Positions 1-23,305 are shown, counted from the stretch's first letter. The stretch is DNA of 24,625 nt from a virus (IMGVR_UViG_2534681649_000014), one strand, 5' to 3'. A program made the numbers and translations. Notes: generated by a model not told the origin, from the letters alone.

Positions 1-147
1 AAAACCGTGCAGAAGTGGAACTGGCCACACTCACGTGGGTGGACTGGTATAATAATCGACGATTGCTGGAAAGGCTGGGCCACATCCCTCCGGCAGAAGC
101 AGAAAAAGCTTATTATGCTTCCATCGGAAACGATGATCTGGCAGCCT
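1..147 (+). pseudogene. IS3-family transposase OrfB, 3-prime terminal fragment (cut by window start)
   Basis: Reading frame 3 from position 3 translates to [48 protein letters not shown] then stop at 145-147. This is the characteristic C-terminal tail of IS3-family (rve-domain) transposases. It is in a different frame from the downstream IS66-like ORF. Confidence 0.55.
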
Positions 148-1038
148 GAGTTCACAGATAAAACACTCTCCAGGAAACCCGGGGCGGTTCAGTATGACGT
201 CCTGCGCCAGTATGTGCTGATGCCCGGTAAAGTTCATGCGGATGATATCCCCGTTCCGGTCCAGGAGCCGGGCAGTGGTAAAACAAGAACTGCCCGGCTG
301 TGGGTCTATGTCCGTGATGACCGTAACGCCGGTTCACAGATGCCCCCGGCGGTCTGGTTCGCGTACAGCCCGGACCGGAAAGGTATCCATCCACAGAATC
401 ACCTGGCTGGTTACAGCGGTGTGCTTCAGGCAGATGCTTACGGTGGTTACCGGGCGTTATACGAATCCGGCAGAATAACGGAAGCCGCGTGTATGGCCCA
501 TGCCCGGAGAAAAATCCACGATGTGCATGCAAGAGTGCCAACCGACATCACCACGGAAGCCCTGCAGCGTATCGGTGAACTGTATACCATCGAGGCAGAA
601 GTCCGGGGATGTTCAGCAGAACAGCGTCTGGCGGCAAGAAAAGCAAGAGCCGCGCCACTGATGCAGTCACTGTATGACCGGATACAGCAACAGATGAAAA
701 CACTGTCGCGTCACTCGGATACGGCAAAAGCGTTCGCATACCTACTGAAACAGTGGAAGGCCCTGAACGTGTACTGCAGTAATGGCTGGGTGGAAATCGA
801 CAACAACATCGCAGAGAACGCCTTACGGGGAGTGGCCGTAGGCCGGAAAAACTGGCTCTTCGCGGGTTCCGACAGCGGTGGCGAACATGCGGTGGTGTTG
901 TACTCGCTGATCGGCACATGCCGTCTGAACAATGTAGAGCCAGAAAAATGGCTGCGTTACGTTATTGAGCATCTCCAGGACTGGCCGGCAAACCGGGTAC
1001 GCGATCTGTTGCCCTGGAATGAGGTGTACTGGCAATAG
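148..1038 (+). pseudogene. IS66-family transposase TnpC, N-terminally truncated remnant
   Basis: The translation (…[73 protein letters not shown]…[31 protein letters not shown]…) matches my memory of the central and C-terminal part of IS66-family TnpC. The N-terminal third and the tnpA/tnpB genes are absent, and the upstream sequence is IS3-derived. The exact junction is uncertain, somewhere in 150-230. Confidence 0.65.
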
Positions 1039-1062
1039 CGGACACTACCATTTGTTCTTTTT

Positions 1063-1881
1063 TTAATCAGCCATCTGATGATATTTTTCCCTGAAGGCTG
1101 CCGGGGAGATATTCCCCAGACGAGAGTGACGACGCTGACGATTGTAGAAAATCTCAATGTATTCCCGTATTACTGAGATGGCTTCATCCCGGTTATTAAA
1201 ACGATAGTGGCTCAGGCTCTCATTTTTCAGCGTTCCCCAGAAGCTTTCCATCGGAGCGTTGTCGTAACAGTGACCTTTACGCGACATTGATGTTTTCAGA
1301 CCAGACTGCTCCTGTATGACCCGGTAATCGTATGCGCAGTACTGTGAACCTCGATCAGAGTGGTGGATTAGCCCGGCAGGTGGGCGCTGGCTCCTGAGCG
1401 CCATAAACAGGGCTTTACCTGTCAGCTCTTTTGTCATGCGCTCTCCCATGGCGTAGCCGACAATTTCGCACGTATAAACATCTTTGATGCCAGCGAGGTA
1501 CAACCATCCCTCCTGTGTGGCAACATACGTCAGGTCCGCCACCCAGACCTGATTTGGTGCTGTAGGAGCGAACGTCTGGTTCAGCAGATTTGGCGCAACT
1601 GGCAGATTGTGGTTCGGGTTCGTAGTCGCTCTGAACTTGCGTTTCTGCTTACAGCGTAGCCTTAGCTCCTTACGAAGACGTGCCAGTCGGTCACGACCAA
1701 CGATGATGCCATTCTCTGCCAGCTCCGTCTGGAGCCGCCGGGTTCCATATGTTTCGCGAGTGCGGATATGTGCCACCTTAATCTCCAGTTTTAGCCGCTC
1801 ATCACTTTGTTTTCTGTCTGAGGGTTCATGCTGTACCCAGTTGTAATAACCGCTCCTGGATACACCAAATACCTGACACAT
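1063..1881 (-). CDS. IS3-family transposase OrfB (DDE integrase-like catalytic subunit), expressed as OrfAB by -1 frameshifting
   Basis: 272-aa ORF with DDE/rve-type motifs (…VWVADLTYV…HHSDRGSQYCA…HCYDNAPMESFWGTLKNE…). It lies in the -1 frame relative to orfA, with a slippery site at 1961-1967. Confidence 0.8.
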   Translation of the reverse strand: MCQVFGVSRSGYYNWVQHEPSDRKQSDERLKLEIKVAHIRTRETYGTRRLQTELAENGIIVGRDRLARLRKELRLRCKQKRKFRATTNPNHNLPVAPNLLNQTFAPTAPNQVWVADLTYVATQEGWLYLAGIKDVYTCEIVGYAMGERMTKELTGKALFMALRSQRPPAGLIHHSDRGSQYCAYDYRVIQEQSGLKTSMSRKGHCYDNAPMESFWGTLKNESLSHYRFNNRDEAISVIREYIEIFYNRQRRHSRLGNISPAAFREKYHQMAD

Positions 1882-1930
1882 CGCTTCAATGGGAAATTGT
1901 TGTCGCCATTGTTCGATTAACGCGTATTTT

Positions 1931-2218
1931 TCAGCGACTCCTGTGCAAAATACGCTGTTGCTTTTTTAATATATCTCGCTCAAGGCGAGCTTCATTTAAC
2001 GCCTTACGCAGTTGCAGAATTTCAGATTCCAGTTCAGCCACCGTGCGGGAACCAGGAGTACCGAGCCCTTTTCTGGCGGCGGTAACCCATTGTCCTAAAG
2101 TGCCTTCAGGAAGGGATAATCGGGAAGCGCCTTCACTGATCGAAAGTTGATTTTCAAGAACCGTTCTGACAGCTTCGGCTTTGAACTCTTTAGAGTAACG
2201 TTGGTTTTTTCTGCTCAT
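1931..2218 (-). CDS. IS3-family transposase OrfA (helix-turn-helix subunit)
   Basis: 95-aa ORF beginning MSRKNQRYSKEFKAEAVRTVLENQLSISEGASRLSLPEGTLGQWV, an HTH-type IS3 OrfA. A leucine-zipper-like region precedes the frameshift site. Confidence 0.8.
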   Translation of the reverse strand: MSRKNQRYSKEFKAEAVRTVLENQLSISEGASRLSLPEGTLGQWVTAARKGLGTPGSRTVAELESEILQLRKALNEARLERDILKKQQRILHRSR

Positions 2219-2851
2219 TATTAGCTCCTTCTGATGCCATTCTATTTCAGGAAGGAGTGTCCGTTAAACTCAGGCTACCTCAGACAGTCCTGTTCTCCCA
2301 AATATCATGGTATTGATACGGGAGATTATGCCGTACAGGTACGACACGTTATGTCGTGCCAAAGGGGAGTGGATAGAAAAAATGGCGAAGATGCGAAAAG
2401 TTGATTAATGCATTGAAAAAAAATGAATTAATAATGAACTTGGGTAAAAGCGCCATCAAAATACGACACGACCTGTCGTATTTTGTGTTAGCCGGGAAAA
2501 GATATCTGCTACTTACTAAAATGATTTAGTGCTGAAAATATTTATAAGCCAATAAATAGACAGGTATTACGGAGTAACGCCCAGGCTATTTTAACGAGCC
2601 TGCTGTTTTATTGGCTCAAAAAACATATCCCATAGATGATCAGCCATACCCGCGTTAGTGAGCAAGGTATCCCTTGAGTAGCCAGGGCTGAAGACGCCCA
2701 TTGATGGGCGAAAACCAAGGTTCTGGCCGTTAAAGCGGCTATGTCGTTAAACACATCACCACCATATGCCATCCGGCTCACTTCGTCGGCCAAATTAGTG
2801 TGATATTCTTTCCAGAATTTCTGTTGTATCCACAACATAAGGCGATGATTG

Positions 2852-5800
2852 ATGGAGCAGTCTCTCAATTTTGAAATGTTGCGCAGCCAGTGGCCGGAAC
2901 TGGCAGAACTCGCATGTATGGCAGAGCGCTATGTTCACTCCGATCCGGAAAGCTGCCTGGTTAAGCTGCGCAACTACACCGAATTGATGGTGCGCTGGTT
3001 GTATCGTCAGGAGCGGTTGCCGGAAGGTATTAAGGCTAATCTTTACGATTTAATGAACGCTGATGTCTTTACCAGCATGATGCCGGAAGCCATCATCATG
3101 AAAATGGATGCGCTGCGTATCCATGGCAACCGTGCCGCGCACGGCGGACGTATCAAAGCTAAAGATACTTACTGGCTGCTCAAAGAAGCGTATTTGTTGG
3201 GAATTTGGCTGTATGTTCGCTACGCCCACGGTAATGTTGATGACTGCCCCAAATTTACACTCCCTCCATTAACACAATCTTCAGGTCGTGCAGATGAAAA
3301 ACGTCTGGAAGATGCAATCAAGGCTCAGGATGAAAGCCGTGAGCGCGAACTGGCGCTACAACGCGCACTACAGCAAGAACAGGAAAAGGCCGAACACCTC
3401 ACTCAACGCCTGAATGAAGCCAGAGCGCGTAACCAGCATGTTGCCGATATTCTCTCTATTGATGAAGCGGAAACCCGCCGTCGCCTGATTGACTCTCGCT
3501 TACTTGCAGCCGACTGGAATGTAGGGGAAGAACTTAAAAACACGGATCAAGTCACACAAGAACATCCAGTCAAAGAGCAACCCACCACCTCTGGTGACGG
3601 TTATGCAGACTATGTCTTGTGGGATGAGGCACACAAACCGTTGGCGGTGGTGGAAGCAAAAAAAACCAGCGTCAATGCCGAGCAAGGACGAATTCAGGCC
3701 CGGCTGTATGCAGACTGGCTGGAAAAAGAATACGGTCAGCGTCCGGTCATCTTCTACACCAACGGCTATGATATCTGGCTGTGGGATGACCATAAAACTC
3801 ATGGTTATCCCCCGCGTCGGGTGTTTGGCTTCTACAGCAAGGAAAGCCTGCAATATCTTATTCAGCAGCGTGAAACCCGTCTGCCGCTGAACAGAGTGCC
3901 ACACGTAAAAGATAACGAAGGTAAGGCCGTTGCCGGACGTTTGTACCAGCTCGAAACCATTGCCCGCGTCAGTGAACGGTTTACCAACAAGTACCGACAA
4001 TCGTTAATTGTTCAGGCTACGGGTACAGGCAAAACCCGCGTGGCAATTGCACTAAGCAAACTGATGATTGATGCCCGCTGGGTAAAACGCGTCCTGTTTC
4101 TTTGCGACCGTAAAGAACTGCGTAAACAGGCGGCAAATGCCTTTAATCAATTCACCAATGAGCCGCTGTATGTGGTCGGGAAATCGAAAAAAGCAGACAG
4201 GCAGAATGCCAGAATCTACATCGCTACCTATCCCGGTATGATGAAAATCATGGACCATTTCGATGTCGGTTATTTCGATTTGATCATCGCCGATGAATCC
4301 CACCGCTCTATCTACAACGTCTACGGCGATCTGTTTAAGTATTTTGATGCCCTCCAGATTGGCCTGACGGCCACGCCAATTGACATGGTGAGTAAAACCA
4401 CTTTCGGCCTGTTTGGTTGTGAAGGACGTATTCCTACCGCCAACTACAGCCTGGAAGATGCCATCGCCGATAACAATCTGGTTCCCTATGAGGTTGTCAC
4501 ACACACAACAGAATTCCTGCGCGAAGGTATCAAACGGGAGAAATTAAGCGACGCACAAATCCGCGAGCTGGAAGAACAAGGCATAGATCCCAATACGCTG
4601 GAGTTTGATGGCAAGGCGCTGGATGAGGCGATCTACAACAAAGACACCAACCGCTATATCCTGCGTAACCTGATGGAAAATGGCCTGAAAGATCGGGACG
4701 GCCAGTTGCCTGGTAAAACCATCATTTTCGCCCGTAACCACAAACACGCGCTGCTGTTGAATGAATTGTTCGACGATATGTACCCACAGTTTGCCGGGCG
4801 CTTCTGCCAGGTCATCGACAACTACGATCCCCGCGCCGAGCAACTGATTGATGATTTTAAAGGGCTGGATGAAAGCACCAACAAAGAGCTGACCATCGCT
4901 ATCTCCGTTGACATGCTCGATACCGGTATTGATGTCCCGGAAATTGTGAATCTGGTCTTTGCCAAACCGGTCAAATCAAAAGTGAAGTTCTGGCAGATGA
5001 TTGGCCGTGGTACGCGCCTCTGTCCGGGGTTGTACGGTTACGACGATAACGGCAAACCGCTGGATAAACAGAAATTCCGCATTTTCGATCACTGGGGCAA
5101 TTTTGAGTATCACGAGCTGCATACCGAAGAGGCGGAAGTCACAGCGACAAAATCGCTTGCGCAAAAACGCTTCGAAGCGTGGGTTATGCTGGGGGCCGCT
5201 GCGCAGCGTAAATTCGACAAACAGGCGGTGGATTTAGTTGCTCACCAGCTTCGCGAGCAAATCAACGCACTGGATGAAAAGTCGATTGCCGTACAGGAAA
5301 AATGGCAGCAGAAAGCGCAGTACAGTGATGAAAAGGTGCTGCGCCAGCTTTCTCCGAAAACACAGCAGGATCTGCTATCTGTTCTGGCCCCGTTGATGCA
5401 GTGGCTGGACGTGCGCGGGCAAAGCGATGCCATACGCTTTGATATGGATATTCTGGCGGCGCAAACTGCCCGTTATACCAACCCGGAAGAGCTGGATGTT
5501 CTCTGGCCGATCATCGTCGAAAAAGTGGAGCGCCTGCCGCCGCATTTGGCGCAGGTGCAGCAACAGGGACAACGAATCAATCAGCTTCGTAATTTAAGCT
5601 GGTGGAAGCAGGCCAGCCTGGAAGAGCTGGAGGATATTCGCATTCATTTGCGCGGTATCATGCACCTGATGGAAAAAGACGCGACGCCTAAATTTGGTTC
5701 GATACAGGTGGATATTACCGAAGATGCGAACCTGATCCAGACGGAGACCCGCAAAACTAATATCCGCTCGATTGATTTCAAACTCTATCGCCAGCAGGTT

Positions 5801-6265
5801 CAGGGGGCGCTGGAGCCGCTGTTCCAGCAAAACCCGGTTCTGAAGAAAATCCGCAACGGCGAGCCAGTCACGCAAAACGAGCTGGATGAGCTGGCGAAGC
5901 TGGTGCTGATCCAGAACCCCAACGTTGATATTCGTGCGTTGAAAGAGTTTTATCCGCAGGCAACCGCCAGCCTGGATAAACTTTTGCGTACCATCATCGG
6001 GATGGACAGCGACGCGGTGGAAGTGCGTTTTGCCCAGTTCGCCGCTGATAACAGCCTGACCAGCCAACAACTGCGCTTCCTGTCATTGCTGAAAAACCAC
6101 ATTCGCGATTACGGCACCATTGAAATGCGGCAGCTCTTTGAACAGCCTTTTACGCATATCCACAACGAAGGCGTTACCGGTGTGTTCCCTGATATAGCGC
6201 AAATCGCCCGCCTGCAAAAGATAGTCGAAGAGCTGGGTGTTGTGACCGACGCAGCGACGGTATAA
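2852..6265 (+). CDS. hsdR: Type I restriction enzyme R subunit (HsdR)
   Basis: About 1137 aa. It has a PD-(D/E)xK-like nuclease motif (DYVLWDEAHKPLAVVEAKK), helicase motif I (QATGTGKT) and motif II (IIADESH). It is followed by hsdM and hsdS. The start could be TTG at 2849 or ATG at 2852. Confidence 0.9.
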   Translation: MEQSLNFEMLRSQWPELAELACMAERYVHSDPESCLVKLRNYTELMVRWLYRQERLPEGIKANLYDLMNADVFTSMMPEAIIMKMDALRIHGNRAAHGGRIKAKDTYWLLKEAYLLGIWLYVRYAHGNVDDCPKFTLPPLTQSSGRADEKRLEDAIKAQDESRERELALQRALQQEQEKAEHLTQRLNEARARNQHVADILSIDEAETRRRLIDSRLLAADWNVGEELKNTDQVTQEHPVKEQPTTSGDGYADYVLWDEAHKPLAVVEAKKTSVNAEQGRIQARLYADWLEKEYGQRPVIFYTNGYDIWLWDDHKTHGYPPRRVFGFYSKESLQYLIQQRETRLPLNRVPHVKDNEGKAVAGRLYQLETIARVSERFTNKYRQSLIVQATGTGKTRVAIALSKLMIDARWVKRVLFLCDRKELRKQAANAFNQFTNEPLYVVGKSKKADRQNARIYIATYPGMMKIMDHFDVGYFDLIIADESHRSIYNVYGDLFKYFDALQIGLTATPIDMVSKTTFGLFGCEGRIPTANYSLEDAIADNNLVPYEVVTHTTEFLREGIKREKLSDAQIRELEEQGIDPNTLEFDGKALDEAIYNKDTNRYILRNLMENGLKDRDGQLPGKTIIFARNHKHALLLNELFDDMYPQFAGRFCQVIDNYDPRAEQLIDDFKGLDESTNKELTIAISVDMLDTGIDVPEIVNLVFAKPVKSKVKFWQMIGRGTRLCPGLYGYDDNGKPLDKQKFRIFDHWGNFEYHELHTEEAEVTATKSLAQKRFEAWVMLGAAAQRKFDKQAVDLVAHQLREQINALDEKSIAVQEKWQQKAQYSDEKVLRQLSPKTQQDLLSVLAPLMQWLDVRGQSDAIRFDMDILAAQTARYTNPEELDVLWPIIVEKVERLPPHLAQVQQQGQRINQLRNLSWWKQASLEELEDIRIHLRGIMHLMEKDATPKFGSIQVDITEDANLIQTETRKTNIRSIDFKLYRQQVQGALEPLFQQNPVLKKIRNGEPVTQNELDELAKLVLIQNPNVDIRALKEFYPQATASLDKLLRTIIGMDSDAVEVRFAQFAADNSLTSQQLRFLSLLKNHIRDYGTIEMRQLFEQPFTHIHNEGVTGVFPDIAQIARLQKIVEELGVVTDAATV

Positions 6266-6278
6266 TACACGCATGACA

Positions 6279-6304
6279 AGCCCCGGCAGCGGGGCTTTTG
6301 TATT
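6279..6304 (+). terminator. Putative rho-independent terminator between hsdR and hsdM
   Basis: GC-rich hairpin AAGCCCCG-GCAG-CGGGGCTT followed by TTTTGTATTT. Confidence 0.45.
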
Positions 6305-6328
6305 TAAAACAGGATATAAACGCTAACA

Positions 6329-7963
6329 ATGATTACTGGCGACTTAAAAAGTAAAATCGACGGACTATGGGAAGATTTCTGGGTGGGTGGTATCACCAAC
6401 CCGCTGACCGTAATCGAACAGATCACCTATCTGATGTATTCCCGGATGCTGGATACCCAGGAACAACGCGACGAAAAGCGTAAACAAATCGCGGGTATTG
6501 ATTTTAAACCGCGTTTTGCGCCAGAACAGCAGGAGTTCCGTTTCAGTCACTATAGCAACCTTGGCTCGGATGAGATGATGGAAGTGGTGCGCGATGGCGT
6601 ATTCCAGCATTTCCGTCAGCTCGGCCAGGCCGATGCTTCGAAGGTGACGCTGCTGGGCAACTTTATGAAAGATGCTCGTCTGGAGATTGTTAAGCCGTCA
6701 TTGCTGACCAAAGCGGTTGAGGTAATCAAAAACCTGCCATTGGATCGCGGCGACACCAAAGGCGACCTTTACGAATACCTGTTAAGCAAGCTGACAACTG
6801 CCGGAATCAACGGACAGTTCCGCACACCGCGCCACATTATCCGCACGATGGTTGAAATGATGGAGCCGAACCCGGCCCGCGGCGAGACGATTTGCGATCC
6901 CGCCTGTGGCACCGGTGGTTTTCTGGCAACCAGCTATGAATATCTGCTGGAGAAGTACAGCTCGCTGGAATCCATTCATACTGAGATTGGCACCAACGAA
7001 CGTGGCGAGCTGGAAGAGCAAAAAATCTTTACCGGCGATCTGCTGACACCGTGGCGTAACCATGTGGATAACAACATGTTCCACGGTTACGACTTTGACA
7101 CCACAATGCTACGTATCGCCGCCATGAACCTGATTATGCACGGCGTGGATGCGCCTGATATCCACTATCAGGACACAATGAGCCAGAGTTTCAGCACAAA
7201 CTTCCCGCAGGCCAGTAAAAACGCCTTCAACCTGATTCTGGCGAACCCGCCGTTTACCGGTTCACTGGACGAGGAAGATATCGACTCCACGCTGTCGGCA
7301 ATGGTGAAAACCAAAAAAACCGAACTACTGTTCCTGGCGCGTATTCTGCAAATGCTGAAAGTGGGCGGGCGCAGTGCCACTATCGTGCCGCAGGGCGTGC
7401 TGTTTGGCTCTAGCAAGGCGCACCAGTCACTTCGCAAAACGCTGGTGGAAGATAACCAACTGGAAACGGTGATCAATCTGCCTTCTGGTGTATTTAAACC
7501 TTACGCTGGCGTGGCGACGGCGATCCTGATCTTTACCAAAGGCGGTCAAACGGATGAGGTCTGGTTCTACGATCTACAAAATGACGGCTACAGCCTGGAT
7601 GATAAGCGCAACCCGATAAAAGACAACGATCTGCCGCATCTGCTGGCAAGCTGGAAGCATTACCGTACTTTACGCGGGCTACCGGTTGATAACTTTATGG
7701 GTAAGAAGTTAGCCTCGTTGCTTAAACAGCAGTACCCGGAAGGGATTAATGCTGGCGTTGATTTTAAAGATCGCACGCAGGCGGCGTTTGTTGTACCGAA
7801 AGCGGATATTGCTGCGCAGAAATACGATCTATCCATCAACCGTTATAAAGAAGTCGTGTATCAGGCGGAGGAATATGAAGATCCGAAGGTGATATTGAAG
7901 CGGTTAAAGGATCTGGAAAAAGAGATTCTGGCGGATTTGGATGAGCTGGAGGGGATGCTGTGA
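6329..7963 (+). CDS. hsdM: Type I restriction-modification system M subunit (N6-adenine DNA methyltransferase HsdM)
   Basis: 544 aa. SAM-binding motif I ([12 protein letters not shown]) and catalytic motif IV NPPF ([11 protein letters not shown]). Sits between hsdR and hsdS. Confidence 0.9.
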
Positions 7964-9042
7964 GTTCGGCGATGGTGAAGTTAGGGGATGTTATTAATGT
8001 TCACTACGGAAAAGCATTAAAAGCTGATCAGCGTGTATCGAATGGAAGTGTCCATGTGTTTGGTAGTTCAGGAATTGTCGGCAACCACGATAAAACGCTT
8101 TGCAGCTATCCCACGATAATTATTGGCCGCAAAGGCAGCGTTGGTGCTATTACCTGGGCTCCAAGCGGAGGCTGGATCATTGATACTGCTTATTACGTTG
8201 AGATCAAAGATAATAATAAGTTAGATCTCCGATACTTGTTTTATATTCTGAGCGGAATTGATCTCACTAAGAAAACGATTACCACAAGTATTCCTGGATT
8301 AAATAGAGACGATCTCTATGATACATTTATTAAATTACCACCTTTTGAAGAGCAGAAACGAATTGTGGATCTTCTCGATAAAGCTGAGGGTATACGCCAA
8401 AAACGTGAGCAATCCATCAAACTGGCTGATGATTTTTTGCGTGCTACGTTTGCTACAATGTATGGGAATCCTATTACAAACCCCAAAAAATGGCCTGTCC
8501 ATCTTATGGGAGAAATTATTGAATTTAAAGGTGGAAATCAACCACCTAAAAGTGATTTTATTTTTGAACCTAAACAGGGTTATATTAGATTAGTACAAAT
8601 TAGAGATTTTAAATCCGATAAATATGCGACGTACATTCCGCAAGAAAAAGCAAAACGTATTTTCGAAGTTGATGATGTTATGATTGCTCGTTATGGGCCA
8701 CCTGTGTTTCAAATACTTAGAGGTTTATCCGGCAGCTACAATGTAGCTTTAATGAAAGCTTCACCCAAAGAAAATATTAGGAAGGGGTTTATATTCTATC
8801 TTCTACAACTTCCGGAATATCATGATGTTGTTGTAAAAAACTCTGAAAGAACAGCAGGACAAACCGGTGTAAATCTTGAACTATTAAACAAATTCAATGT
8901 TCCCCTCCCACCTATATACTATCAAGATGAGATATTAGATAGATTAGCTAGAATTGAAAAATTTAAAGAAAAAATAGAAATATCATTAAATCATTTAGAA
9001 ATACAATTTTTATCACTACAGAAGAGATTAATAGGTTTTTAA
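7960..9042 (+). CDS. hsdS: Type I restriction-modification system specificity subunit (HsdS)
   Basis: 360-aa ORF whose GTG start overlaps the hsdM stop (GTGA). Markedly lower GC than hsdR/hsdM, as expected for target-recognition domains. It has two repeated halves (…LPPFEEQKRIVDLLDKAEGIRQKREQ… and …NVPLPPIYYQDEILDRLARIEKFKEK…) consistent with conserved HsdS spacer regions. An alternative ATG start is at 7972. Confidence 0.8.
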   Translation: MSSAMVKLGDVINVHYGKALKADQRVSNGSVHVFGSSGIVGNHDKTLCSYPTIIIGRKGSVGAITWAPSGGWIIDTAYYVEIKDNNKLDLRYLFYILSGIDLTKKTITTSIPGLNRDDLYDTFIKLPPFEEQKRIVDLLDKAEGIRQKREQSIKLADDFLRATFATMYGNPITNPKKWPVHLMGEIIEFKGGNQPPKSDFIFEPKQGYIRLVQIRDFKSDKYATYIPQEKAKRIFEVDDVMIARYGPPVFQILRGLSGSYNVALMKASPKENIRKGFIFYLLQLPEYHDVVVKNSERTAGQTGVNLELLNKFNVPLPPIYYQDEILDRLARIEKFKEKIEISLNHLEIQFLSLQKRLIGF

Positions 9043-9101
9043 ATCCTTAGTATCGAAATAAACATTAATTAATTATATTAAATTAAGATATTTTAGGAAA
9101 T

Positions 9102-9134
9102 TAAGGCGTCACTCTTAGGTAACGCCTTTTTTTA
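9102..9134. terminator. Putative bidirectional terminator between convergent hsdS and the downstream minus-strand gene fragment
   Basis: Hairpin AAGGCGT-(loop)-ACGCCTT followed by TTTTTTTAC. Confidence 0.45.
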
Positions 9135-9166
9135 CTATCTCGCCCCCTAAGAAGGTTATATCTTAC

Positions 9167-9935
9167 TTAATACCTGTGACTATTTTTGATATAATCATAA
9201 ATACACACTAATTTGCAAAAATTACTTGACAACACCTGAGTATTCATAGCTTCATCTATATGTTTTTTCAATATTTTGAGAAGCTCTCCCATATCGCGCT
9301 TGATTAATCCAGGCTCCATATAAGGCATCATTCTTAAAAAGAAACTGAAATCATAAGCAAGATATAACTCATTGACCCCCACCTTGACCTCAGGAACGGT
9401 TTCAGAGCGTCGTTTATCCCATCCTTGAGACTGAAAACTAATAGGAGTGATATTTAATCGTGATAAAACGCCACCTGAGAGTTCTGTTTCATTAATTATA
9501 CTCCCATCAGGATTAATTAATTTAGCGTGATTTAAGAAGTGAAAAATAGGAATGCGCGCATTGCCTTTGCATATATTTGGCAAAACATCATTAACAACAC
9601 ATCCCCAATCATAATATCCATTTTCAAATACAACCTCTCGGATGAGATCTACACGCTCCAGTCCAACCAATCCTTTAGTTGCCATCGATTCCGATTTTTT
9701 TACCATCGAAATAGCACCATATCCCACAACAAACTCAGTTGTACTGACCCCTTCTTCAATTTTCTCTGAATCCCTCACATATAATTTTCCTTTCGGATCA
9801 TCAGTTAAGACCAACTCATAAAGTTCATCTTTTATCATTCGGAATAAATGTGCTGGAATCCTTTTTTTAGTTTCACTCAGCACCTCAAATATTTCTTTAT
9901 AGGATGGTGCCTGAACATATTTTACCGGGATTTTT
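9167..9935 (-). pseudogene. Low-GC gene fragment (C-terminal portion) abutting IS1; possibly the distal part of the IS1-disrupted SIR2-like gene
   Basis: The ORF 9167-9949 has its predicted start codon inside the IS1 terminal repeat, so the native N-terminus is missing. Host-encoded sequence begins at 9935. AT-rich. No recognisable catalytic motif. Confidence 0.45.
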
Positions 9936-9950
9936 GGTAATGACTCCAAC

Positions 9951-10454
9951 TTACTGATAGTGTTTTATGTTCAGATAATGCCCGATGACCTTGTCATGCA
10001 GCTCCACCGATTTTGAGAACGACAGTGACTTCCGTCCCAGCCTTGCCAGATGTTGTCTCAGATTCAGATTATGTCGCTCAATGCGCTGAGTGTAACGCTT
10101 GCTGATAACGTGCAGCTTTCCCTTCAGGCGTGATTCATACAGCGGCCAGCCATCCGTCATCCATACCACGACCTCAAAGGCCGACAGCAGGCTCAGAAGA
10201 CGCTCCAGTGTGGCCAGAGTGCGTTCACCGAAGACGTGCGCCACAACCGTCCTCCGTATCCTGTCATACGCGTAAAACAGCCAGCGCTGACGTGATTTAG
10301 CACCGACGTAGCCCCACTGTTCGTCCATTTCAGCGCAGACAATCACATCACTGCCCGGTTGTATGCGCGAGGTTACCGACTGCGGCCTGAGTTTTTTAAG
10401 TGACGTAAAACCGTGTTGAGGCCAACGCCCATAATGCGTGCACTGGCGCGACAT
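9951..10454 (-). CDS. insB: IS1 transposase InsB (frame expressed as InsAB fusion)
   Basis: 167-aa ORF (…[72 protein letters not shown]) matching IS1 InsB. Confidence 0.85.
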
Positions 10455-10648
10455 CCGACGCCATTCATGGCCATATCAATGATTTTCTGGTGCGTACCGG
10501 GCTGAGAGGCGGTGTAAGTGAACTGTAGTTGCCATGTTTTACGGCAATGAGAGCAGAGATAGCGCTGATGTCCGGCAGTGCTTTTGCCGTTACGCACCAC
10601 GCCTTCAGTAGCGGAGCAGGAAGGACATCTGATGGAAATGGAAGCCAC
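10373..10648 (-). CDS. insA: IS1 InsA (transposition inhibitor / N-terminal part of transposase)
   Basis: 91-aa [45 protein letters not shown]…, zinc-finger InsA of IS1. Confidence 0.85.
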
Positions 10649-20727: not shown

Positions 20728-21807
20728 ATGAATGTAGGGCATCTCAATTTCTTCAAGGTTAATAAGTGCGGTTTATACAAGGTAAATGATGACAATACCT
20801 ATGGTTTAGAACTTAGCGAAACATTTGACCTCATACAGGATTGGGTGGGAACTAAATCTCTTGCACTCACGATACCATGGGATCCAAAAGAAAAACCAAA
20901 CAGTTCAAAGTGTTATTGCAAGGATATTTATAAGGATGAAAATACTGGTGATTTCTTAGTCATGTTATGGAAATCTGATACTGATAGTACGGGCTCTTTA
21001 TTAGGAGCTAGTGAAGACGGTGAAATCGGAAGCTCATCGGTGGTTAAATATACTAATAGCTACAGAGGGAAAAAAGTTATCTGGGGGCGGCCATGCTTTT
21101 ATTGGGTTATACCTGAACTTGAAACTATAGTATCCATTAAATTCGACCATTCTGTTTGTGATTCTGAACTATTTCAAGACTATGTACACTCATCTATTAC
21201 TAATAGAGTTAAACATAGCAAAAGGGTTAAAAATAAAACCGAGAAAGGTTATATAAGGCTATCTAATACCGATGACGAAGACTTATATAAATATATGTAC
21301 AGGTTTGATATGAAGCTCAGAAGCTTAGAAACCACTCATACTGAGTTAGGTAAACTAATACCAAAAATAACACACATAGTTCGCAGGGAAACTATTATTA
21401 TAAATCCAAATGATGCACGAGCTGATTGGTTAAAGACCTTTAGCACTCTCGTTCCATTTGTGTCCGGAAAGAAAAATGCCAAAACAAGACAAATTGAAAT
21501 AAAAGCAGAAGCAAAACCATCCTTGAATGAAGTTCAAGAAATCATTGAAAAGTATTCGGCTGAGGATAGAGAAAAACGTCTTTGGGACAATGTTGGATTT
21601 GCTACAGACAAGGGTATAACTTGGGTGGATAAATATAGAATGCGTGATATTCTCAATGTCCCTTCTGACGACTATTCAACATATTCCGCCGCATATATTT
21701 ACGAACAAATATCACACAAAAGAAAAGAATTTATTTCCCCTATATTAAAAGAATTAAAAGCATTACAATCTCAACCAAGAATAAAGAAAGCATCTGGAGA
21801 GGATTGA
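20728..21807 (+). CDS. Hypothetical protein, gene 1 of low-GC cassette in the P4 psu-int hotspot (359 aa)
   Basis: Long ORF with an AAGGAAAG RBS 5-6 nt upstream of the ATG. Strongly AT-rich relative to flanking P4 core genes. Lys/Asp/Glu-rich and soluble-looking. No motif I can assign. Confidence 0.7.
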   Translation: MNVGHLNFFKVNKCGLYKVNDDNTYGLELSETFDLIQDWVGTKSLALTIPWDPKEKPNSSKCYCKDIYKDENTGDFLVMLWKSDTDSTGSLLGASEDGEIGSSSVVKYTNSYRGKKVIWGRPCFYWVIPELETIVSIKFDHSVCDSELFQDYVHSSITNRVKHSKRVKNKTEKGYIRLSNTDDEDLYKYMYRFDMKLRSLETTHTELGKLIPKITHIVRRETIIINPNDARADWLKTFSTLVPFVSGKKNAKTRQIEIKAEAKPSLNEVQEIIEKYSAEDREKRLWDNVGFATDKGITWVDKYRMRDILNVPSDDYSTYSAAYIYEQISHKRKEFISPILKELKALQSQPRIKKASGED

Positions 21808-21810
21808 ATA

Positions 21811-22344
21811 TTGAAAGCTATAGCAGGCATAGCCAAATACACATGGATATACATGGCGATATTCATTATATCGCTGATGATTATTTCGTCATCCGATATT
21901 AACTATGTGTATAACGATTTTGCCAACTATTGCACTCTTCTCGTATCAGTTTCTGGAATGGTTTTTACTATTATGGGAATTTGGTTAGCGTTTCTTTACC
22001 CAAATGCTTTGCAGCGTATTGTGAACCCCAAAACTATAGAAACCGTTGATTTCACCGAACAACTGGAAGATACAAGAAGATTAGAAGCAATAGTTGGAAG
22101 TGTTCTAAAATCATCTTTCGTTATGATTACTTTACTTGTTGTATACTTAGTTAAACTAGTGTTTTTCAAAAGTCATCTTTATTTAGAGAGCCAAGATGTA
22201 ATAAAAAACACATCTTTAGCATTAATTATTGCTATTTCGTACATGCAGATTGAGGCAGTAATTAGCGTAATACTTGCAAATGTTATGTTTATCAATGATT
22301 TACATAACAAGCGAGAGCAAAGAGACATTGATGATCAAGTATGA
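21811..22344 (+). CDS. Hypothetical small integral membrane protein (about 4 predicted TM helices), gene 2 of hotspot cassette
   Basis: 177 aa from a TTG start at 21811, with a GGAGAGG RBS and 3 nt after the gene-1 stop. An alternative ATG is at 21853. Four hydrophobic segments (WIYMAIFIISLMIISS, LLVSVSGMVFTIMGIWLAFLY, SSFVMITLLVVYLVKLVFF, LALIIAISYMQIEAVISVILANVMFI). Confidence 0.6.
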   Translation: MKAIAGIAKYTWIYMAIFIISLMIISSSDINYVYNDFANYCTLLVSVSGMVFTIMGIWLAFLYPNALQRIVNPKTIETVDFTEQLEDTRRLEAIVGSVLKSSFVMITLLVVYLVKLVFFKSHLYLESQDVIKNTSLALIIAISYMQIEAVISVILANVMFINDLHNKREQRDIDDQV

Positions 22345-22351
22345 GGGAAAA

Positions 22352-23305
22352 ATGAAAAAGAATATACGTGTTATACCTAAAAATATTCATAGCAAGTTAA
22401 GAAGGCTTGGTAATACAGTTGTTGCTGGCACTTCTATTGCATTTACGGAAAACCAATTAAAAAGTGGAGCATTAGAGCACCTTGGAATATATTTTGATAA
22501 TGGTGTTAATGCTTATGAGACGTCGGTCATACCAGATCCATTGCAGGGTAAATATTCACTTAAAAATGTTTTTGGTGAAGAAATTGTCAGAAAAGACCTC
22601 CCAAAAGAAACTCATTACACTGAAATTGAGTCACCTAACTGGGGTGATAGCTCTAATGGTACACATACTGTTAGATTACCTTACGAGAAATATCCCAGAG
22701 ACATTATACCACCAACACTCATAGCCATTGAAATTAATCACAAACAGCCCTCGGACAGCCATTTCATATTTAACTTCAGAGTAACTAGAATTTTAGACAA
22801 ACAATCAAATAAGTTTGATGATGAATTATTATTTGATTTAAATCTTCTTCAAGAAAATCTTGGTAAATGTGGAATTGAGGATGCTGATAAACCCATATCG
22901 ACTTATGCTGATACACTTATAGTCTCATGGGAAATATTTCCACCAGGTAGTAAAGAAGAAACTTTAGCAAGAATTTTTAGAGGTAAAAATATCACTTCCG
23001 ACAAGAAAAATGTCGCTGAAAATAGATATGACTTCTTCATGAGTCTTGAACCTAAAAAAATCGTCACAGGAAACAGCACGTTCAGTAATTATATTGGAGC
23101 TATGCTGGAGGACGATTTGGTTGTATTTGAAAACATAGAATATGGTAATGCTATATATATCCTCTATGATAACTGGGATGATATCAGCAAGCTATCTCGA
23201 ATTGACTTATTATCAGGAAGAGCAGGAAGTAATTTCGATAGAATAATCCATAGTGGCAATTGGAAAGATGAAGTACGAAAAAAAGTTGCTGCTGGAAGAT
23301 TATGA
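22352..23305 (+). CDS. Hypothetical protein, gene 3 of hotspot cassette (317 aa)
   Basis: ATG at 22352 is 7 nt after the gene-2 stop, with a GAGGG RBS. The ORF-track start at 22274 overlaps gene 2 and is probably an extension. AT-rich. No recognisable motif. Confidence 0.7.
   Translation: MKKNIRVIPKNIHSKLRRLGNTVVAGTSIAFTENQLKSGALEHLGIYFDNGVNAYETSVIPDPLQGKYSLKNVFGEEIVRKDLPKETHYTEIESPNWGDSSNGTHTVRLPYEKYPRDIIPPTLIAIEINHKQPSDSHFIFNFRVTRILDKQSNKFDDELLFDLNLLQENLGKCGIEDADKPISTYADTLIVSWEIFPPGSKEETLARIFRGKNITSDKKNVAENRYDFFMSLEPKKIVTGNSTFSNYIGAMLEDDLVVFENIEYGNAIYILYDNWDDISKLSRIDLLSGRAGSNFDRIIHSGNWKDEVRKKVAAGRL

Follow-up and report, generated by a model that had tools for sequence, protein, structure and literature searches.

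The 24,625-nucleotide viral sequence IMGVR_UViG_2534681649_000014, referred to here at its full length as the window, contains between positions 2852 and 9042 an operon of three genes, hsdR, hsdM and hsdS. In our judgement this operon very probably constitutes a classical Type I restriction-modification (R-M) system whose HsdR subunit is headed by a HEPN domain, whose hsdS gene is a mosaic low in guanine and cytosine (GC), and which is carried as cargo of an island at the tRNA gene leuX. The system is already known, being annotated in hundreds of genomes, and is ordinary in kind.

The operon is complete and syntenic, as a preliminary description of this DNA had proposed, and all three genes lie on the plus strand. 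hsdR begins with an ATG at 2852 and ends with a stop at 6265, encoding a protein of 1137 amino acids (aa), the size originally estimated for it; hsdM, which encodes the N6-adenine methyltransferase subunit, occupies positions 6329–7963 (544 aa); and hsdS, which encodes the specificity subunit, extends from a GTG at 7960 to a stop at 9042 (360 aa), its start overlapping the hsdM stop by 4 nt, with the sequence GGAGG located 7 nt 5' of the GTG. Each gene is an intact open reading frame (ORF), and inspection of the ORFs revealed neither frameshifts nor internal stops in hsdR, hsdM or hsdS. The identification of the products as Type I R, M and S subunits is concordant among Pfam, NCBIfam and PADLOC, and the REBASE-derived profiles of PADLOC match all three proteins from end to end: REase_I PDLC03047 matches HsdR over its full length with 909 bits, MTase_I matches HsdM with 640 bits, and Specificity_I PDLC03061 matches HsdS with 754 bits over 360 of 360 positions. 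The possibility of a truncated or frameshifted subunit, raised in the preliminary description, was checked against these ORFs and profile matches, and all three subunits proved to be whole.

The domain composition of the subunits and their catalytic motifs agree with this assignment. In HsdR, Pfam recognizes DUF4145, HSDR_N, ResIII, Helicase_C and EcoEI_R_C; HsdM consists of HsdM_N and N6_Mtase (204 bits for the latter), contains the methyltransferase motifs I (DPACGTG190) and IV (NPPF306), and matches the structure 5ybb_A in the PDB with an E-value of 1e-48; and HsdS comprises two Methylase_S stretches and matches HsdS relatives of known structure in the PDB. The ratios of nonsynonymous to synonymous substitution (dN/dS) relative to E. 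coli D2 are 0.039 for hsdR, 0.023 for hsdM and 0.14 for hsdS, which indicates that the three genes have been subject to strong purifying selection.

All motifs expected of the restriction subunit are intact in HsdR, namely D253, E268-A-K270, GTGKT391, DESH481 and QMIGRGTR715. The PD-(D/E)xK nuclease domain (residues 201–330, positions 3452–3841, plus strand; Pfam HSDR_N) contains D253, E268 and K270, which are invariant in EcoKI as well as in an alignment of 119 sequences consisting of the window HsdR and 118 homologues at 51–99% identity. The nuclease is followed by a translocase of the SF2 DEAD-box type (residues 364–727, positions 3941–5032, plus strand; Pfam ResIII, SWI2_SNF2 and Helicase_C) with motifs I (GTGKT), II (DESH) and VI (QMIGRGTR), and the motor motifs, like those of the nuclease, are invariant among homologues. 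A fragment of another HsdR in the PDB (3h1t) matches with an E-value of 8e-30. The C-terminus is formed by an EcoEI_R_C domain (Pfam PF08463, 75 bits; residues 980–1122, positions 5789–6217, plus strand) that is present in EcoKI HsdR as well. Approximately 252 residues, and not the 130 originally counted, precede the nuclease motif; the first 130 or so constitute an additional domain, discussed below, and residues 140–200 belong to a charged linker. This linker (residues 136–200, positions 3257–3451, plus strand) is rich in E, K, R and Q, is poorly conserved, aligns with a longer stretch of EcoKI and is probably helical.

The enzymology of the system is predicted from its membership in the Type I class, as distinct from gene integrity, domains, motifs, distances, the HEPN fold, the mosaicism of hsdS and genomic context, which were read directly. 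HsdS would recognize a bipartite DNA target through its two target-recognition domains (TRDs), and an M2S1 complex would methylate one adenine in each half-site. On an unmodified target, the R2M2S1 complex would reel in DNA by means of the SF2 motor of HsdR, and the PD-(D/E)xK nuclease would then cut away from the target. Within the 63 bp that separate hsdR from hsdM, 32 nt before the hsdM start, lies a strong terminator-like GC hairpin (positions 6278–6297, plus strand) with an 8-bp stem that includes six GC pairs and is followed by the T-run TTGTATTT; this arrangement suggests that hsdR and hsdMS may be separately controlled, as they are in Type IA and IB systems.

Close relatives of the operon are abundant. 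Of 5426 complete E. coli genomes, 479 contain a 6.6-kb block corresponding to it at 95–99% identity, 391 of these with coverage of at least 80%, and the genome annotations name its genes 'DEAD/DEAH box helicase family protein', 'type I restriction-modification system subunit M' and 'restriction endonuclease subunit S'. Proteins identical to all three of the window are listed under 'MULTISPECIES [Shigella]' and occur on 290–561 contigs, and the cluster of HsdR sequences at 90% identity has 2685 members, including proteins from E. coli W, Salmonella, Citrobacter, Klebsiella and Enterobacter. Because a query limited to the N-terminal 139 residues recovered mostly fragments, homologues were collected with full-length HsdR, which yielded 7543 of them at E ≤ 1e-10; among the 120 matches listed of these 7543, which include proteins from Vibrio, Shewanella, Pseudoalteromonas, Aeromonas, Photobacterium and others, nearly all are about 1130–1190 aa long and all but a few contain DUF4145. 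For such Shigella and E. coli strains the system would add to the barriers against incoming DNA; it is routine defence cargo, already catalogued, in a hotspot that has been well described, and its practical value is modest.

Position among the Type I families

Type I systems are formally assigned to families by subunit exchange (PMC12707154); here, sequence identity, NCBIfam equivalog scores and PADLOC clusters served as a proxy for family status. Some features of the operon are those that would be expected of a member of the EcoKI (IA) or EcoAI (IB) family: the gene order and the EcoEI_R_C tail are common to all three, the N-terminal DUF4145 domain is shared with IA, and the best NCBIfam match of HsdR is PRK11448. 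Membership in either family nevertheless appears extremely improbable, given that HsdR is only 26% identical both to that of EcoKI and to that of the EcoAI-family system of E. coli O157:H7 FRIK2455, with 28% and 29% identity, respectively, for HsdM, which equals the distance between IA and IB themselves (27% for HsdR and 29% for HsdM). The equivalog cut-offs are all missed, at 335 bits against 729 for PRK11448, 232 against 550 for NF046051 (the EcoAI/FtnUII equivalog) and 69 against 285 for TIGR00348 (an HsdR model of the EcoR124I type), and PADLOC places the restriction subunit in a separate REase_I cluster, PDLC03047, as opposed to 03042 for IA, 03049 for IB and 03040 for a reference of the ID-like type. 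By these proxies, the system is a representative of an unnamed but well-populated gammaproteobacterial family on the IA/IB branch, whose distance from IA and from IB matches that between the two. A MADS-type system was considered as well and rejected, since the MAD2 equivalog reaches 118 bits where 720 are required.

The resemblance to EcoKI is nonetheless extensive at the level of organization. In both systems hsdR is followed by a gap and then by hsdM and hsdS, the last two overlapping, and in both HsdR consists of DUF4145/HEPN, a linker, the PD-(D/E)xK nuclease, the SF2 motor and EcoEI_R_C. The differences are that the EcoKI linker is longer, with the nuclease aspartate at residue 298 as compared to 253, and that EcoKI is encoded in the immigration control region as opposed to leuX. 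The preliminary description had concluded from the long N-terminal extension that HsdR is not EcoKI-like. The exclusion from type IA stands, on account of the low identity and the missed equivalog score; the argument from architecture does not, since EcoKI HsdR aligns from residue 1, contains DUF4145 and has 297 residues ahead of its own nuclease motif. What the extension does separate is the window HsdR from IB, in which the module is lacking: the IB protein, of 810 aa, has neither HEPN domain nor linker, and its alignment with the window HsdR begins at residue 199 and attains 26% identity over residues 199–723 only. IB has the same gene order, and homology extends over its nuclease, motor and EcoEI_R_C parts. 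In strain FRIK2455 the type IB hsdS is itself frameshifted (6282–8035 in the FRIK2455 sequence).

The remaining types have in common with the window system the R, M and S subunits. Type IC, typified by EcoR124I, differs in gene order (hsdM-hsdS-hsdR as against R-M-S), and its HsdR (PDB 2w00) yields a local match at the helicase motifs only, with an E-value of 1.5e-7. As the ID-like reference we used the immigration-control-region system of E. coli ATCC 25922, which was taken to be ID by elimination; a review places only IA, IB and ID in that region (PMC12707154). This reference, with the order M-S-R, has no similarity of substance to the window system, showing only a local match of 47 residues in HsdR and 21% identity in HsdM. 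With respect to type IE, the window HsdM reaches no more than 122 bits with the long (810–932 aa) MTase_I models of PADLOC; the HsdM of KpnBI reportedly has about 877 aa (hsdM of 2631 bp), as compared to the 544 aa found here.

The name given by RefSeq/PGAP to the window HsdR and its relatives is only 'DEAD/DEAH box helicase family protein', a generic designation that is explained by the protein falling below every NCBIfam HsdR equivalog cut-off. There is thus an annotation gap, in which an HsdR family with thousands of members is named only as a helicase.

The HEPN domain of HsdR

Residues 1–135 of HsdR (positions 2852–3256, plus strand), which correspond to what had been described as an N-terminal extension, adopt the four-helix HEPN fold. 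Pfam recognizes the region as DUF4145 (PF13643) with 33.8 bits against a cut-off of 23.1, and DUF4145 is a member of the HEPN superfamily known to occur in fusion with a restriction endonuclease and an SF2 helicase (PMC3710099). The Arg...His pair typical of HEPN is represented by R89 and H97, both of which are conserved without exception in all 119 sequences and also in EcoKI. R89, G92, N93, H97, E25, D31, P32, K38, R40 and E44 are all invariant across the 119 sequences, with a strictness equal to that of the nuclease residues D253, E268 and K270, and EcoKI HsdR retains the R/G/N/H signature along with the same invariant residues.

This degree of conservation raises the question of what the domain does. 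In the phage-defence protein RAZR (PD-T7-4), the DUF4145 domain is a proven RNase with R146 and H154 as catalytic residues (PMC13017515), and the R-x7-H spacing of R89 and H97 is identical. Given this precedent and the equal spacing, an RNase or regulatory role of the HsdR domain is possible: it might be an active RNase, or else an additional effector or sensor that is regulated, in which case EcoKI-like enzymes would be more than DNA restriction machines. We regard this as quite unlikely. The likeness to RAZR comprises the Pfam family, the fold and the conserved Arg and His eight positions apart; the proteins otherwise differ, RAZR being small, with a zinc finger and a C-terminal HEPN domain, and activated by phage ring proteins, whereas in the window the domain is N-terminal in a restriction subunit of 1137 aa and is not known to have RNase activity. 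We found no report of RNase activity of EcoKI, and no function for the HsdR HEPN domain, in the Type I literature searched. Moreover, HEPN RNases require a dimeric composite site, so that RNase action of HsdR would need pairing of the HEPN domains, many HEPN domains are non-catalytic binding modules, and conservation by itself does not distinguish catalysis from a structural or regulatory role. Such an activity would be compatible with the operon being a classical Type I R-M system; if it existed, restriction of DNA by IA-like Type I enzymes would be linked with an RNA-directed or abortive response. The role of the domain is in any case a question about EcoKI-like enzymes generally, rather than about the locus in the window: why an invariant domain has been kept.

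The module composed of the HEPN domain and the linker (HsdR residues 1–210, positions 2852–3481) also heads other proteins. In a search at E ≤ 0.001 it was present in 1218 representative clusters, N-terminal in every case. It matches the PADLOC candidate PDC-M16A, a 930-aa profile, with 137 bits; in proteins of about 700–960 aa it precedes an SF1 helicase of the RecD/PIF1 type, some of these proteins carrying a C-terminal TBP-TOTE domain; and a Schlafen-type helicase protein is headed by it likewise.

Exchange of target-recognition domains in hsdS

The specificity gene differs sharply in composition from its neighbours, with a GC content of 0.357 compared to 0.510 for hsdR and 0.509 for hsdM. 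On the plus strand, hsdS is divided into TRD1 (7960–8334), a central conserved helix (8335–8469), TRD2 (8470–8919) and a C-terminal helix (8920–9039), with GC contents of 0.40 in TRD1, 0.35 in TRD2 and 0.20 in the C-terminal helix. In an alignment of five alleles of the family, the comparison that the preliminary description had recommended, TRD1 and TRD2 are variable and the centre is invariant (LDKA..IRQKREQ.IKLADDFLRATF).

The same alignment demonstrates directly that TRDs are swapped among E. coli alleles. HsdS of strain 317 has a different TRD1 and is identical to the window protein in the central region and TRD2; that of strain PapRG-04-4 is identical in TRD1 and different in TRD2; and that of strain EC16 differs in both. 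(Downstream of hsdS, PapRG-04-4 has a second DEAD/DEAH helicase gene.) The suggestion that an AT-rich hsdS had acquired exchanged target-recognition domains is therefore borne out. The protein is short, as had been remarked, at 360 aa the shortest of the five alleles, yet hardly unusual within their range of 360–392 aa. The exchange of TRDs would proceed by recombination in the conserved central region. Synonymous divergence (dS) from E. coli D2 amounts to 0.156 for hsdR and 0.171 for hsdM and to about one third of that, 0.049, for hsdS, which indicates that the history shared by the two strains is more recent for this hsdS allele and suggests that the allele may have changed backgrounds later than hsdR and hsdM did.

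Phase variation of hsdS by an inverton or shufflon was considered and rejected, as neither inverted hsdS repeats nor a spare hsdS copy occur within positions 2200–13200. Prediction of a half-site from EcoKI HsdS was likewise abandoned, because TRD2 is only 21% identical, which is too weak. The literature searched offered no usable published recognition sequence or methylome for the system in Shigella or E. coli. The natural swaps of TRD1 only and TRD2 only would allow quick assignment of half-sites from methylomes.

The leuX island, its damage and the adjoining satellite

A tyrosine integrase of the P4 type (positions 11481–12827, minus strand; Pfam Arm-DNA-bind_3, Phage_int_M and Phage_integrase) accompanies the R-M operon, and a stretch of 14 nt at 12955–12968 is identical to the 3' end of tRNA-Leu (leuX), as found by blastn-short with the leuX region of E. 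coli EC16 (E-value 0.02). The match, weak by itself, is read as the putative remnant of an attachment site (att) between the island and a P4-like satellite. In E. coli EC16 the same tandem arrangement is found, ending at tRNA-Leu (leuX) after a P4-type integrase; in the case of the window, the tRNA gene lies beyond the end. From the integrase, the leuX match and the collinearity with EC16, the operon is identified as cargo of a P4-type-integrase island at the leuX hotspot, in tandem with the satellite, in keeping with the proposal that it is mobile cargo and not a stable core locus; that the genome is of Shigella type is indicated by the contigs on which the identical proteins occur. According to a 2025 review, leuX is defence hotspot 37 of E. 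coli, with defence genes in 97% of isolates and Type I systems in 17% (PMC12707154). The window island resembles other islands of hotspot 37 in its array with a P4-type integrase next to tRNA-Leu, containing a Type I R-M system and other defence genes, and differs from them in being cut up by IS600-like, IS66 and IS1 insertion sequences (ISs).

Upstream of the operon, a fragment of an IS66-family transposase (positions 7–1038, plus strand; Pfam DDE_Tnp_IS66) starts at position 57 of the Pfam profile, or at 140 of 387 in NCBIfam, and is followed by an IS3-family, IS600-like element (approximately 1017–2283, minus strand) with orfA at 1931–2218 and orfB at 1063–1881, recognized by both Pfam and NCBIfam as IS3 transposase. 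The boundaries of the latter were taken from matches to E. coli records; the element is apparently intact and ends 569 bp upstream of hsdR. The earlier characterization of this side as IS debris thus holds for the IS66 fragment but not for its neighbour. On the other side, where an IS1-disrupted gene had been correctly noted, a SIR2-family gene (SIR2_2 domain) is convergent with hsdS; it encodes 529 aa in E. coli D2 and is usually the next gene after the R-M block in E. coli. In the window it is split by a 768-bp IS1 (positions 9937–10704, minus strand; identified by the IS1 transposase in Pfam and NCBIfam and by terminal inverted repeats) into a C-terminal remnant (9167–9936, minus strand) and an N-terminal remnant (10705–11117, minus strand), which match the PADLOC candidate PDC-S25 with 153 and 128 bits, respectively, and both align to the D2 gene. 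Relative to D2, 435 bp that include the catalytic core are missing, and no target-site duplication is present in the sequence flanking IS1; simple insertion of IS1 was rejected in favour of insertion combined with a 435-bp deletion. The SIR2 gene is dead, because it is interrupted by IS1 and has lost the 435 bp covering the SIR2 core.

Such damage bears on whether the operon itself still functions. It may be a silent or decaying remnant in which the reading frames are intact and the genes are unexpressed or restriction has been lost, like much of the cargo of IS-rich Shigella islands. IS damage accumulates in Shigella genomes, and here it has come close, with the IS66 fragment and the IS600-like element upstream, the latter within 569 bp of hsdR, and the SIR2 neighbour destroyed. 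No consensus sigma-70 promoter for hsdM was detected 3' of the 6278–6297 hairpin, and in the relative from E. coli PapRG-04-4 hsdR is a pseudogene with an internal stop (4251–7664 in the PapRG-04-4 sequence), so that the system can decay; restriction and modification activity in the window strain is, for its part, only predicted. These points weigh against a functional system. We nonetheless consider a silent remnant unlikely, in view of the integrity of all three ORFs and all motifs, the full retention of the 569-bp region upstream of hsdR, which is collinear with EC16, the occurrence of identical proteins on hundreds of Shigella contigs, and dN/dS values far below 1, which mirror the past rather than the present state. 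An intact Type I R-M system remains the reading that we prefer.

Beyond the leuX match lies a complete P4-like satellite with a primase, C4 and isrK RNAs, sid, delta, psu, hotspot cargo of low GC content and an integrase that extends past the end of the window. Its immunity RNAs are intact (17291–17576), with 74.9 bits for the C4 antisense RNA, 69.7 bits for isrK, and the a1/b1 targets present, which is consistent with a satellite that may be functional. The C4 and isrK RNAs are also the sole Rfam matches, at 17.3–17.6 kb, and an RNA element within the R-M operon was accordingly rejected. P4 hotspots are known reservoirs of anti-phage systems (PMC9122126). The cargo of the satellite between psu and int (20728–23305) has a GC content of 0.32–0.37 and includes an ORF of 343 aa (22274–23305) with no Pfam or PADLOC match, as well as two ORFs, at 20728–21807 and 21811–22344, that match the PADLOC candidates PDC-M18A and PDC-M18B with 132 and 54 bits, respectively.

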